The notes under the pieces were generated by a model. The model was given only the letters and a program-made list of their open reading frames with translations, searched no databases and had not been told where the DNA came from. 64,000 nt of DNA from Eledone cirrhosa. Its lineage: Eukaryota. A program made the translations under genes and the position numbers. Shown here piece after piece: positions 2,755 through 56,145 of this stretch. The DNA is taken from assembly GCA_964016885.1 (NCBI GenBank), contig OZ024755.1, positions 6,944,001 through 7,008,000 of the forward strand. The letters are read 5' to 3'. The number at the start of each line of letters is the position of its first letter. Position 1 is the stretch's first letter.

Positions 2755-3150
2755 CAGAGGTTATATTTAATTTGTTGGGATTCAACAAGCTTAAAAAATG
2801 TTATAACTGATATAAAGCACTCAACAGATTAGTGGAGTAAATATACAATATATTAACAAATGGAAACTATATTTATAAAGCCATATTTATTTTATTATAC
2901 ATATTTCAAGGGCCACCAAGGCAAATTATGGTGCGCTTTCATCAGATAATTATGGTGCGCTTTCATCCAGGAAGCTCCAACCGTTAAGGTTGTCTTTTTT
3001 TAGGGTATGTCAATATTTATTTATAAGACAAATCTGTATTGTATTTTATCTGATGAAAGCGCACCATAATTTACCTTGGTGGCCCTTGAAATATGTATAA
3101 TAAAATAAATATGGTTTTATAAATATAGTTTCTATTTGTTAATATATTGT
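2755..3150. mobile_element. Fold-back double-hammerhead element, family C1, in (TA)n
   Basis: Hammerhead on - at 2890-2949 and on + at 3044-3105 (ttttat-CTGATGA-stem II-GAAA-tatgta-TA-ataaaa). Inverted arms, (TA)n on both sides, and a reverse-oriented homologue at 55766-56145. Confidence 0.8.
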
Positions 3151-3786
3151 ATATATATATATATATATAGAGAGAGAGAGAGAGAGAGAGGGGGGGGAGA
3201 GAGAGAAAGAGATAGAGAGAGAGAGGGAGAGAGAGAGAGAGAGAGAGAGAAGGTGAAGTTGGAAATAGCACGAAAAATATATTTTAGGGTCTGTTTTTCT
3301 TTTTTTTTCCTTTCTTTGATTCGTCAAAGTGATATTATTGAAAAAACTTCACCTTTTCTCTATATCCACTGTTTTGTATAGAACCTTACTTCCCTTTTCT
3401 AATATATATATATATATATATATATATATATATATATATATATATATATATATATATACACTAATATATATACATATAGACATGATTAATACCAAAACTG
3501 TGATGAACACCATCAATAAATAAATACAGTTTATAAAGGAGAGAAAGTAGAAAGTAGAAAACGGTCAACAGTTCTGCTACGGTGGCTTCAAGAAAGACAC
3601 GCAAAGAAAAACCACTTAAATAATTAATAACTTTATCTCCACCTTACGTTAGACTACATGCCAACAAGCAGGTGTGTTTTTACGCTACATTCTACCTTTC
3701 AATAAACCTTTGACACTGCAAGATTTCTTAAGCTTTTATATCTTAGCTATTGATTTCTTGCATGGTTCTTTTTGTTTGTTTCTTTT

Positions 3787-4075
3787 TAATGGGTTTAATA
3801 TTAACGTATCCTTTTAGTGTTTTAATTGGTTTAATGTTAACGTATCCTTTTAGTGTTTTAATGGGTTTAATGCTAATGTATCCTTTTAGTGTTTTAATTG
3901 GTTTAATGTTAATGTATCCTTTTAGAGTTTTAATGGGTTTAATGTTAATGTATCCTTTTTGTGTTTTAATAAGGTTAATGTTAACGTATCCTTTTAGTGA
4001 TTTAATGGGTTTAATGTTGATGTATCCTTTTAGTGTTTTAATGGGATTGACTTTAACTTATTCTTTTAGTGTTTA
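3787..4075. repeat. 36-bp minisatellite, about 8 units
   Basis: Unit ttaatgggtttaatgttaacgtatccttttagtgtt. Confidence 0.9.
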
Positions 4076-5044
4076 TAATTTGTTTAATTTGAACTTATCT
4101 TTTTTCGTATTTTTAATGGATTTACTGAGGTTTTTTGCAGATTATCAAAGATTATTCCCCTCTGTTGCTTGGAAAATAGATTCTGCAGAGATCACCTTTA
4201 GGATGTCATGCACCATTCACGATCATTGTATTTCATGTTTCATTATCCATTCTTCTAATCCCTTCTATCATTGAAACAACCTTCACGATTATTACCATAA
4301 TCTCGTTTTTCACATTCACTTTACTTTTCAGAACCAGCTTCACCCTTCTATAATATTATGTTTCAAATACCTTTTTCGTGTCATTTTCCTTGATCTTTTG
4401 TGTTTCCAATATACCAAGATATTTGTATCTAATGTTTTCTATGTCTTATATCAGAAAAGAATGATTTTGATGACAGAAAAGCATTTAAGAATGTTGATAA
4501 TATATTTTTTGATGAGATAATAACAAAAGAAAAAGCATAAATAGAATTATCCATTATATAAAAACAACTAATATAATGGAGACCAACTTAATAAAGGCAA
4601 TTAATGTATGTGGTAAATGAATGGAACTTGAAGTAGGATTGGGAGGCGAGAACCATGATGGAAGATGAAAAGATAGAAGCGGACGTAAAGACAATGAGAT
4701 CTGATGTAGATTTATTGGAAAGTCAAAGAAATATCAGCTGAAATTCCTAACGGAGGTTTACTGATTTAGAAAGAAAGATTAATATAAAAACAAAGTGAAA
4801 CCAAGGGATTTTGGTAAAATGAACAAAATATAAACCACTACATACCACACGGTATCTATAATTTAGATCAGAAACATATATATATATACATTTGTATATA
4901 TATATATATATTACTCCTGAGTAAACAGGCCCACCTGCGCACTTCGTTCAGTGCTCTACCCTGCTTTCTGAAGTGTCGGTAGGCAACCAGCACATACTCA
5001 AATTTATATATATATATATATATATATATATCCTTCTTCTTCTT

Positions 5045-5178
5045 CTGCTTTACGTTCTGAGTTCAAATCCCGCAGAGGTTAACTTTGCCTTTAATCCTTA
5101 AGAGATCGATAAAATAAAGTACTAGTAATGTACTGCGGTAATTGCTGGACTTGTGCCAAAAGTAAAAACATTATTATT
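5045..5178 (+). mobile_element. tRNA-derived SINE (dominant family), 5'-truncated
   Basis: B-box gagttcaaatcc, then aactttgcct..atcctt..gtcgataaaataaagtac..aattgctgg..ttgtgccaaaagta. Confidence 0.85.
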
Positions 5179-5387
5179 TTCTTCTCCTTCTCCTTCTCTT
5201 TCTCCTTCTCCTCCTCCTCTCACCACCACCACCACCACTACCACCATCACCACCATAACAACAACAATAAGAGACACAGACACAATAGTTATTGCTGTTC
5301 TTGTTTGTCATCTGCTAAAAATATGACATTTGAACATTTATGTTTAAAATATAATAATAATAATAATAATAATAATAATAATAATAA

Positions 5388-5570
5388 TGTTTTCTTTATT
5401 AACCACAAGGGTTTACATAAAGTAGACATTAAGGACAGGACGGTACAATACAGGACGGTACAAAAGGGCATTTCGGTGTGTAAAAAAAGAACAAAAAAGA
5501 GGATGTAATAATAGAACAATGAAAAAATTCCCCAATAGGGGGGAGACTTCCGATGGCCAACACAGCTTAT
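5388..5570 (-). mobile_element. 3' UTR fragment of a Tx1-like LINE abutting (AAT)n
   Basis: tttctttatt..ccacaaggg..acaggacggtaca..aacaatgaaaaaattccccaa.aggggg matches the 3' UTR at 59290-59510. Confidence 0.7.
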
Positions 5571-53557: not shown

Positions 53558-53696
53558 AGAAGAAGAAGAAGAAGAAGAAGAAGAAGAAGAAGAAGAAGAA
53601 GAAGAAGAAGAAGAAGAAGAAGAAGAAGAAGAAGAAGAAGAAGAAGAAGAAGAAGAAGAAGAAGAAGAAGAAGAAGAAGAAGAAGAAGAAGAAGAA
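53558..53696. repeat. Pure (AAG)n
   Basis: Direct reading. Confidence 0.95.
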
Positions 53697-53934
53697 ATTA
53701 TTAAAAAGAAAATACACAAAAAAATATGGAAGTGAAAAAATATAATTAAATTAAGAAAAAAAAATGACCGACAAAGATTAGAAAAGAAATATTCAATATA
53801 TATATAAGTTGAATAAAGAACGGAATAATGGAATAGGGAATTAAAAGAAAATGAATTGAACTGGAATCAAAGAATAACTAATAATGTTTTGGTTGAAATG
53901 TTGATCTAGAAAAAGGTAACGGAGTCAGTTAGGA

Positions 53935-54355
53935 GTGGTAGGGTGAAGGGCTGGCAGAGGGTGTGGTGAGGTGTAGGGAGTAGCATTGTTGGTGGTGGGG
54001 TGAGGAGCTGGCAGAGGGTGTGGTGGGGTGTAGGGAGTAGCATTGTTGGTGGTGGGGTGAGGAGCTGGCAGAGGGTGTGGTGGGGGTGGAGGGGGTAGTA
54101 TTGTTGGTGGTGGGGTGAGGAGATAGTAGAGAGGGGTGTGATGTGGGGGCAGTATTGTTCGTGGTGGGGTGAGGAGATGGCAGAGAGTTCTGGGGTGTGT
54201 GGAGGTAGTATTGAGGGTGGGGTGTGTGGAGGTAGTATTGGGGATGGGGTGAGGATAGGACTGAGAGGTATCGGGGTTGGGGATTGGAAAAGGGGGTAGT
54301 GTGCGATGAAGGCTGAGAATGGGTGAGAAAGTTGAAGGAGGGTGAGGAGCTGGCA
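53935..54355. repeat. G-rich degenerate tandem repeat, about 57 bp
   Basis: ggggtgaggagctggcagagggtgtggtggggtgtagggagtagcattgttggtggt repeated. Confidence 0.8.
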
Positions 54356-55594
54356 CATCGAGGGTAATGTTTGGAGGGGCGCTGGGGGAGGAGATGAGTT
54401 GCAGGCAGAGGAGTAGCCGTAGGGGTGAGTGGGTGGGTAAAAGGTGTCTTCGAAAATTGTTCATAAAAGAAACAAAAAAAATACAAGAAAAAAAATACTT
54501 AAAGAATTCTTTGATTGATATGTTGATAATAAAGAGATATAGAGGAGGCAGTGGTTAGTGCGGGTGAGATGGCTACACAGGGTAGAGAGTGAGGAATGTT
54601 TTGGGTGGTGAGGGCACTCAGGGTAAACTTCAGGACTGCAGTTATTTTAGTGTGTCTATTTGTGTGGTTTGATTGATTTCTAGTCCATTCTATTTAGTCA
54701 TTACATTTGAAATAATAATCTGCTCTGTCTCGTTCCAAATAATATAAAATAATACAACAAAAACAACAACAACAACAACAACAGCAGCAACAGCAAATAA
54801 TAATAATAATAACAATAATGAAGTGAATAGCGAACCAAAGTTCAAGGCATACCCAACTAACATTACATACATATACACACAGTTAAATATAAATATATAT
54901 ATACATAAACATATACATACATATATATATATGTATGTGCGCGTGTATGTTTATATATATATATATATATATATATATATATATATATATATATATATAT
55001 ATATATATATATATATATATATATATATATATATATATATATATATGTGTATATATAAATATACATACATAAATAAAGATATAGATATATCTTATATATC
55101 ATCTACATATACATATATATATGTATATATATATAGTTCGGATGTATATGTATATATACGTATATATATATATATATACATATATATATATATATACATA
55201 CATAATTATACATATATATATATGCTTGCATGTAAACACACACACACACACACACACACATATATATATATATATATATAAACATATTTATAAATATACA
55301 TACATACATACTAATACATACACATCCTGTCCCCTACGACTCCAACACACACGCACACACATACACACACAACACACACACACACGCACACATACATGCA
55401 CACCCGCAGGCGCCAGAGCCTCGGGGCTCCCCTGTACATACAATAAGACCTATGAGTAGGCAGGTGGCACAAGAGCGATTCTGTGGAGAGAACGGTGAAG
55501 TCGACTGTAAAACCTTCAATTGAAATGGCTTTGTCGATTTTTAGTCTCCATTTCAACTTTTATCGATCTGATTGATCTATTCTCTTCATTACAG

Positions 55595-55663
55595 AACGAA
55601 GCCATTCTTCCCAATTTTAAGATATTTGTTTTTAAGACTGATGATGGAGAATTGCTTCCCAGT
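55595..55663 (+). CDS. Candidate isolated 69-nt exon (NEAILPNFKIFVFKTDDGELLPS)
   Basis: Pyrimidine tract ttctcttcattacag| and donor |gtgagt, length divisible by 3, one open frame. No homology recognised. Confidence 0.3.
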
Positions 55664-55765
55664 GTGAGTATATATAAGGATCTATATGTATCTTTGTATG
55701 TGTGTTTTGGTATATATATATATATATATATATATATATATATATATATATATATATATATATAT

Positions 55766-56145
55766 ACAATATATTAATAAATGGAAACTATATTTATAAA
55801 ACCATATTTATTTTATTATATATATTTCAAGGGCAACCAAGGCAAATTATGGTGCGCTTTCGTCAGATAAAATGCAGATTTGTTTTATAAATAAATATTG
55901 ACATACCCGGAAAAAAAACAACCTTAACGATTGGAGCTTCCTGGATATTTTTATCTGACGAAAGCGCACCATAATTTGCATTGGTTGCCCTTGAAATATA
56001 TATAATAAAATAAATATGGTTTTATAAATATAGTTCCCATTTATTAATATATTGTGTATTTACTCCACTAATTTGTTGAGTGCTTTATATCAGTTATAAA
56101 AATGTTTAAGCTTGTTGAATCCCAACAAATTAAATATAACCTCTG
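55766..56145. mobile_element. Family C1 fold-back double-hammerhead element (- 55811-55872; + 55949-56010)
   Basis: ttttat-CTGACGA-...-GAAA-tatata-TA-ataaaa on both strands. Reverse homologue of 2755-3150. Confidence 0.85.

Follow-up and report, generated by a model that had tools for sequence, protein, structure and literature searches.

A bulged hairpin beside copy ends in short Eledone cirrhosa repeats and coding Hydra-clade Penelope-like elements

A motif shared by short repeats

We analyzed a stretch of 64,000 nucleotides (nt) from Eledone cirrhosa (GenBank assembly GCA_964016885.1, contig OZ024755.1, positions 6,944,001 to 7,008,000 of the forward strand), hereafter the window, in whose own numbering all positions are given. 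The window is rich in simple repeats and holds families of short elements, some with hammerhead ribozymes, that carry the motif TYGAGTRCYT. Here we report that this motif is one strand of a bulged hairpin lying a few bases 3′ of the points where element copies end, and that coding elements of the Hydra clade, the Penelope-like elements (PLEs) with a C-terminal endonuclease described by Craig et al. 2021 (PMC8557442), carry the hairpin as well.

The motif occurs 13 times in the window, against a mean of 0.62 in 100 dinucleotide shuffles (maximum 3) and of 0.5 under 500-nt block shuffling, which bears out the shared motif noted in an initial annotation made from the sequence alone. All six sites named in that annotation were recovered, at 8670–8679 (+), 22628–22637 (−), 56076–56085 (+), 45393–45402 (−), 38599–38608 (−), and 51114–51123 (−). 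By family, the matches fall six times in A, twice each in B and C1, and once each in C2, C3, and D. The carriers had been taken for otherwise dissimilar families, which is true in part: six families do carry the motif, but C1, C2, and C3 still align with each other when the motif region is masked (local scores 96, 38, and 30; 0 of 200 shuffles each), and there are therefore about four independent lineages rather than six. With that region masked, the alignment between B and C1 is weak (score 24, 0 of 200 shuffles), and A has none to any other family. Insertion into (TA)n, an inverted truncated arm (the short arm), and a tail on one side only are seen in families A, B, and C1–C3.

The motif is one strand of a paired hairpin

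At 13 of 13 sites, the motif forms the 3′ strand of a hairpin, as an ACTC located 9–16 nt upstream of the TY can pair with the GAGT. A further pair joins the base that follows ACTC to the one preceding TY; it is U-A in A, B, and D and C-G in C1–C3. Written as RNA, the layout is ACUC, a variable upper stem of 2–6 bp, a variable loop, a 2-nt UY bulge on the 3′ side, GAGU, and an unpaired RCY, with a lower stem of 4 bp. The conserved unit is the paired hairpin rather than a linear 10-mer signal. A structural descriptor run over the window returned 15 sites (shuffle mean 0.97), comprising the 13 motif sites, one in family F at 18417, and one stray; loosening the flank added sites at 7001 and 52045. 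With one copy taken from each of eight window families, 48 of 48 cells are paired and three pairs have changed on both sides, a count that is weak by itself because the C families are related to each other and structure was the basis for choosing E2 and F.

Family A hairpins lie at 8652–8679 (+; ACUC, 4-bp upper stem, UU bulge, GAGU, ACUU) in the element 8539–8723, 13359–13386 (−) in a long arm at 13315–13448, 18113–18140 (+), 22369–22396 (+) in 22257–22450, 41389–41416 (−) in 41345–41502, and 56546–56573 (−) in 56502–56705; a decayed copy at 6910–7034 keeps one at 7001–7028 (+), outside the linear-motif matches. Family B has hairpins at 22628–22650 (−), in a fold-back element (22588–22784) with a hammerhead core on each strand, and at 22053–22075 (−) in the element 22013–22144, where the sense hammerhead is gone, apparently by deletion between short direct repeats, and only the antisense one is kept. 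In C1 they lie at 2815–2838 (−) and 56062–56085 (+), in C2 (with a UC bulge) at 45393–45416 (−), and in C3 at 38599–38628 (−, element 38531–38935).

C1 (2755–3145 and 55770–56145, outer bounds approximate) and C2 (45335–45716, end approximate, and 22785–23070) have two copies each, with a common spacer between opposed hammerheads. This spacer reads in the short-arm sense, and 7–9 nt beyond the start of the short arm lies a degenerate piece resembling the hairpin, possibly the second hairpin (H2, described below) of a circular or tandem non-coding unit of ~270 nt.

The family D hairpin, with a 5-bp upper stem and a UC bulge, lies at 51114–51142 (−) in a long arm at 51039–51235, and a degenerate second hairpin-like piece follows ~39 nt after it. 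The D arms (51039–51300) flank a (TA)n tract rather than meeting directly. Two additional hairpins belong to family E2, at 52045–52068 (+) in an element at ~51962–52093 and outside the linear-motif matches, and to family F, at 18417–18446 (+) in an element at ~18360–18510, with GCUC/GAGC and a 6-bp upper stem. The sequence immediately 5′ of the hairpin is similar in D and F, yet the bottom pair differs, being A-U in D and G-C in F. No inverted arm is present in the E2 and F elements.

Coding Hydra-clade elements carry the hairpin twice

Metagenome contigs were scanned with a degenerate reverse transcriptase (RT) pattern, giving 121 loci (L001–L121) of an estimated 270, of which 80 have flanks. 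They form 92 clusters at 85% protein identity, with a median pairwise identity of 50%; viral contigs gave 0 matches to the same pattern. Sixteen near-full open reading frames (ORFs) encode 679–732 amino acids (aa), as the single ORF of an element under 3 kb with the hallmarks of a telomerase-like RT. Hydra-type protein motifs (RW[KR] in 16/16, DK[TS] in 16/16, DKG in 0/16, CxCx5C in 15/16) are enriched by design, as the search pattern was drawn from Hydra consensus sequences. A GIY-YIG-like pattern is found in 14/16 ORFs, with a Pfam GIY-YIG match in 1/15 only (E 0.088), and the model of the L006 protein (predicted local distance difference test score, pLDDT, 85.7) has telomerase reverse transcriptase (TERT, 3du5) as its top fold match (E 2e-8). 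Since Pfam and PDB sequence searches with the ~700-aa locus proteins (alignment of 15) gave no convincing match, standard annotation would miss these proteins.

Informative loci, those with at least 150 nt upstream of the ORF, number 27: two strict hairpins are present in 16, one in four, and none in seven, of which four show degenerate forms by eye. The first hairpin (H1) stands behind the hammerhead, 74–103 nt after its start (14 loci), and H2 follows 55–71 nt after H1 (17 loci), before the start codon. Coding elements mostly read GAGC-ACT where the window has GAGT-RCY, and the 5′ partner is altered to match. The bottom pair is G-C in most metagenome loci, A-U in window families A–E, and U-A in both hairpins of L060, with family F (G-C) as the exception among window families. 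Presence in autonomous PLEs, a check named in the initial annotation, is thus seen in the coding Hydra-clade elements in the form of a paired hairpin with other letters, not as the 10-mer.

With the 3′ motif alone as an anchor, a 5′ partner and closing pair accompany 58/63 matches in zones of the pseudo-long terminal repeat (pLTR), compared to 6/52 elsewhere, although the zones were set after the data had been seen and some of the six are further element copies. After removal of duplicates, and taking the nearest partner, 51/56 distinct sites have a 5′ partner. The closing pair holds in 51/51 (33 C-G, 15 U-A) against a shuffle mean of 37.4, and the second and third upper pairs hold in 38/51 and 37/51 against means of ~20; 0/5000 shuffles reach any of these values, in statistics that ignore kinship among loci. 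Pairs were counted by script, as an alignment of 47 hairpins left the variable loops out of register.

File S7 of PMC8557442 gives six Hydra consensus sequences, which we inspected by eye. The hairpin is clear in the tails of Hydra-2_Amil and Hydra-2_Ajap; Hydra-1_Ajap has it twice at its 5′ end, where Hydra-1_Crog has a GCCC/GGGC variant, and it is doubtful in Hydra-1_Amil and Hydra-1_Obim. The four 8-mers of TYGAGTRCYT are absent from that consensus file. They are only scattered in the Naiad and Chlamys files, where no hairpin was seen at the 8-mer places listed (13 per 8-mer).

In 16/17 loci an in-frame ATG follows 12–39 nt after H2, an arrangement that would suit hairpins serving expression, either by promoting transcription or by signaling translation of the ORF just behind H2, and the pLTR is the presumed PLE promoter in the text of PMC11167929 and PMC3846280. 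We nevertheless consider a role in expression improbable: covariation is not expected of a double-stranded promoter box, H1 lies far from the ATG, short window families without a detectable ORF keep the hairpin, and the copy-end geometry and UA tract described below would be left unexplained.

Hammerhead ribozymes and affinity of the window families

The motif had been placed downstream of a ribozyme throughout. This holds for B, C1, C2, and C3, where a canonical hammerhead core, identified by pattern and pairing, precedes it; motif-bearing A copies hold only the 3′ half, and D has no recognizable core. A complete family A hammerhead, with a U3-A8 variant core, is present at 33038–33123 in a copy (33035–33141, +) that ends at the short-arm site and so lacks the hairpin. 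Its stem II is long and branched and its loop III palindromic, and most A copies fold back inside stem II, thereby losing the 5′ core. The U3-A8 change has been described for Schistosoma PLEs (PMC4209133). No core was recognized in D, E2, or F. An Rfam search of the window gave no match at the gathering score, and the window ribozymes therefore rest on pattern and pairing only; among the 150 listed of 489 E-value matches there was no hammerhead, two entries being Pestivirus and the others artefacts in which simple repeats resemble microRNAs.

Family G (2576–2711, 7105–7245, 28205–28348, and 12248–12339) has a minimal hammerhead, no inverted arm, and no hairpin, and is probably the end of a PLE from another clade. 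Hammerhead without hairpin in G, and hairpin without recognizable hammerhead in D, speak against the idea that the hairpin has no part in copying and is either a relic of common ancestry or a tertiary partner of the hammerhead. The fairly constant 74–103 nt between the hammerhead core and H1 would agree with such a partner, and the families may share ancestry, yet the flanks of A, B, C, and D are unalignable while the hairpin is kept with compensatory changes, and it is present twice per element. We regard this explanation as very improbable.

No DNA similarity was found between window families and metagenome loci. A translated search (tblastn) of the window with the locus proteins gave no match at E 0.01, and a six-frame motif scan revealed no Hydra-type ORF. 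Compared with the Hydra clade, the window families thus show no ORF similarity and have an A-U instead of a G-C bottom pair (except F). The window copies are short, and families A–F may therefore be ends of coding elements or non-coding passengers of Hydra-clade PLEs; they behave like such ends or passengers and are at most putative members of the clade.

Copy ends fall just 5′ of the hairpin

Distances from the motif to the long-arm end (A 44, B 38, C1 60, C2 58, C3 67, and D 74 nt) agree with the 35–75 nt of the initial annotation, although this spacing is loose. A motif positioned relative to the long-arm end was rejected, as the distance spreads over 25–74 nt. The tight positional constraint is instead to the end of the short inverted arm, which lies just 5′ of the hairpin. 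In six of seven family A copies, among them the element at 8539–8723, the short arm stops 5 nt short of the hairpin (the remaining copy could not be read); in C1 it ends 2 nt before in both copies, in C2 0–5 nt, in C3 6 nt, and in B (22588–22784) 2–12 nt, the latter ambiguous owing to an A-run. Ends were scored for A, B, C1–C3, and D, leaving out B1, E2, and F, and those of AT-rich arms were read from ungapped views, as gapped alignment blurs them (values −1 and 0). Family A reads from three runs of reduced-representation libraries agree: among the breaks listed, the main ones into TA-rich sequence fall at 18107, 5 nt before the hairpin at 18113 (3733, 3529, and 3326 reads), and at 18181 (7873, 8796, and 10994 reads), with a variant at 18174.

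Coding elements show the same geometry, with 9/9 mappable copy ends located 2–11 nt before a hairpin. The end of L003 lies 2 nt before H1, and those of L009, L023, L062, and L071 lie 3, 4, 4, and 6 nt before H2; L019 ends 6 nt before a degenerate H1, L078 8 nt before H2, and L056 and L015, by eye, 4–11 and 5–9 nt before a hairpin. Loci that continue into a next unit (L006/L007, L043, and L072) or stop at contig ends (L008 and L058) were left out of this mapping. Behind the 3′ TA tract of L009 and in the 5′ flank of L063, a second Hydra-type end with its own hairpin is found inverted in the same TA tract.

Junctions have 2–5 letters in common with the (TA)n beside them. Positions −11 to −3 of the hairpin contain at least three alternating A/U letters in a row (the UA tract) in 39/50 cases, compared to 22, 12, and 9 of 50 in control windows and to 26.9 after shuffling within the windows scored (0/2000 shuffles reach 39); L005, which abuts the TA repeat, counts trivially.

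The same end geometry would be expected if the hairpin marked RNA processing, that is, if a nuclease or termination made RNA 3′ ends just 5′ of the hairpin and the enzyme started there. Full-length copies have 5′ boundaries where 3′ ends also fall, 3 nt before H2 in L005 (TA repeat, 3 nt, then H2) and ~12 nt before it in L072, as predicted for a cut yielding both a 3′ and a 5′ end. RNA-seq reads also end at the initiation sites of Poseidon_Ac, a PLE for which the text of Frangieh et al. 2024 (PMC11167929) describes an RT that initiates at two internal positions delimiting the tail, needs the RNA 3′ of them, and acts on an AT-rich target. The same report shows internal initiation on uncut RNA in vitro, microhomology of the UA tract with (TA)n can account for the 5′ joints, and the ends vary over 0–11 nt before the hairpin, tracking the UA tract and keeping no fixed distance; we therefore hold processing to be an unlikely explanation, if one to be reckoned with.

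Alternatively, the hairpin may act in single-stranded DNA, in complementary DNA (cDNA) or a displaced strand, by guiding the GIY-YIG endonuclease as it resolves the intermediate and trims copies. Endonuclease resolution has been proposed for the tail (PMC8557442), a tail requirement for cleavage by the Drosophila virilis endonuclease is cited in PMC11167929, and most of the hairpin pairs are Watson-Crick and able to form on either strand (G-U versus A-C counts of 11 to 5, or 6 to 4 after duplicate removal). Against this, ends are joined directly to (TA)n with 2–5 nt of common letters, as priming predicts, and the two-site tail of Poseidon_Ac was traced to RT start sites (PMC11167929). Action at the level of DNA appears rather unlikely.

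A proposed start-site signal for the element enzyme

The initial annotation had read the motif as a cis-signal: a recognition site for RT or endonuclease, a promoter element, or an RNA tertiary contact. A conserved cis-signal is supported, and enzyme recognition fits best, whereas a tertiary contact with the ribozyme finds no support and a promoter element is a poor fit, given that the letters vary and the pairing is maintained. From the genomic geometry and the covariation, we infer with moderate confidence that the motif is the 3′ strand of a bulged hairpin of Hydra-clade PLEs that, in RNA, positions the RT-endonuclease at its start site.

In the mechanism that we propose, the element protein would bind the invariant lower stem, the bulge, and the 3′ flank of the hairpin, and then cut (TA)n DNA, whose 3′ end would pair with 2–5 bases of the UA tract that immediately precedes the hairpin. 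As copying would run away from the hairpin, the hairpin in use would never be copied. A target end primed before H1 would yield the short arm, and the other target end, primed before H2, would yield the long arm containing H1, the strand of which is the motif first noted. The interval between H1 and H2 would then be the one-sided Penelope tail, and copying in trans could extend to short families in which the hairpin is retained. The loose distance from motif to long-arm end likely reflects the spacing to a second, uncopied hairpin.

Several observations weigh against this start-site role. The inverted piece of family D (51264–51300) ends 56 nt before the hairpin, genome-wide end data cover family A only, and the two 5′ boundaries just before H2 (L005 and L072) are equally explained by an RNA cut site. 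H2 was not seen for any window family, so that a long arm ending before H2 is extrapolated from coding relatives, and the long ends of C and D, 82–104 nt after H1, lie beyond the range of about 55–73 nt between H1 and H2 in the loci. Seven of the 27 informative loci have no strict hairpin and four have one only. Taken in isolation, the window hairpins fold weakly, with energies from −2.6 to −10.3 kcal/mol and a z below −2 in 3/8; the minimum-energy structures of B and E2 lack the bulged form, and the G-U versus A-C counts (6 versus 4) do not tell which strand folds.

More tentatively, each Hydra-clade element may carry two telomerase-like modules, each a minimal unit in which a short UA alignment tract would pair with the cut (TA)n DNA and an adjacent protein-bound hairpin would keep it at the active site, used by a dimeric enzyme with one module per end of a double-strand cut; we rate this as possible, though short of an even chance. 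If true, a single step would account for both the tail and the head-to-head fold-back, and a module of ~40 nt would be enough for an RNA to be copied into (TA)n.

Penelope-like RTs are the closest relatives of telomerase, and the choice of internal start sites, the one-sided tail, and the inverted arm are posed as questions in the text of PMC8557442 and PMC11167929. A hairpin of 25–30 nt whose core is invariant, whose compensatory variants exist in nature, and whose position relative to copy ends is fixed would make the start-site question reducible to a few defined mutations, for which an assay already exists in another PLE clade. The hairpin may also be used as a marker that assigns ORF-less hammerhead repeats to a partner clade.

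Relation to known systems

LINE (long interspersed nuclear element) RTs recognize 3′ stem-loops in their own RNA and in partner SINEs (short interspersed nuclear elements). The likeness is that unrelated short families retain a small bulged stem-loop by which an RT acting in trans can take hold of their RNA. LINE stem-loops lie 5′ of the priming site and are copied, whereas the Hydra hairpin lies 3′ of the inferred start and occurs as a pair of hairpins.

The Hydra clade, as described in PMC8557442, resembles the window copies in its (TA)n targets, a hammerhead near the 3′ end (matched in the window by the putative cores of A, B, and C1–C3), an inverted 5′-truncated arm, and a one-sided tail; its tails measure 30–40 nt, compared to 49–104 nt in the window families. 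Poseidon_Ac, as reported in PMC11167929, agrees with the start-site role proposed here in that two RT start sites bound the tail and RNA 3′ of the starts is required. It belongs to another clade, however, its starts lie inside an AC-rich stem loop 111–118 nt into the ORF, and they are said to be non-homologous to the cut DNA, compared to 2–5 letters common with (TA)n here. The ends described here lie 5′ of twin hairpins in an untranslated region, and none are reported for Poseidon_Ac in the description given in that text.

Metazoan non-LTR (long terminal repeat) retrozymes are short non-coding units with type I hammerheads, proposed to derive from and depend on PLEs (PMC7229834; bioRxiv 10.64898/2026.07.22.740005). 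In those texts they are defined as tandem arrays, whereas the window copies are fold-backs; self-comparison of the window revealed no tandem hammerhead units, only inverted pairs and single copies.

The tail and the inverted arm were already known for PLEs (texts of PMC8557442 and PMC3846280), while the hairpin was not found in print. The main text of PMC8557442 does not contain the word "hairpin" and describes no such element; the text of the bioRxiv preprint, supplements aside, mentions no hairpin, stem-loop, tail, or recognition, and that of PMC7229834 no hairpin or stem-loop. A twin bulged hairpin was not found described in the literature searched, a scope outside which most subscription papers and figure panels fall.

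Other repeats in the window

A large fold-back at 51393–51940 lies in (TA)n, with 184-bp arms of 94% identity and a CTGATGA half core per arm; its tail of 50 nt lacks the hairpin. Copies of an abundant SINE-like family, ~190 bp in length, are found at 10726–10916, 13724–13919, 17121–17334, 20483–20669, 26402–26557, 39195–39363, and 46129–46326, with at least a dozen further partial copies. Finally, ORF fragments of non-LTR retrotransposons lie at 58691–59119 (+) and ~60200–60700 (−), which we take to be a restriction-like endonuclease C-terminus and an L1/Tx1-like stretch, respectively.

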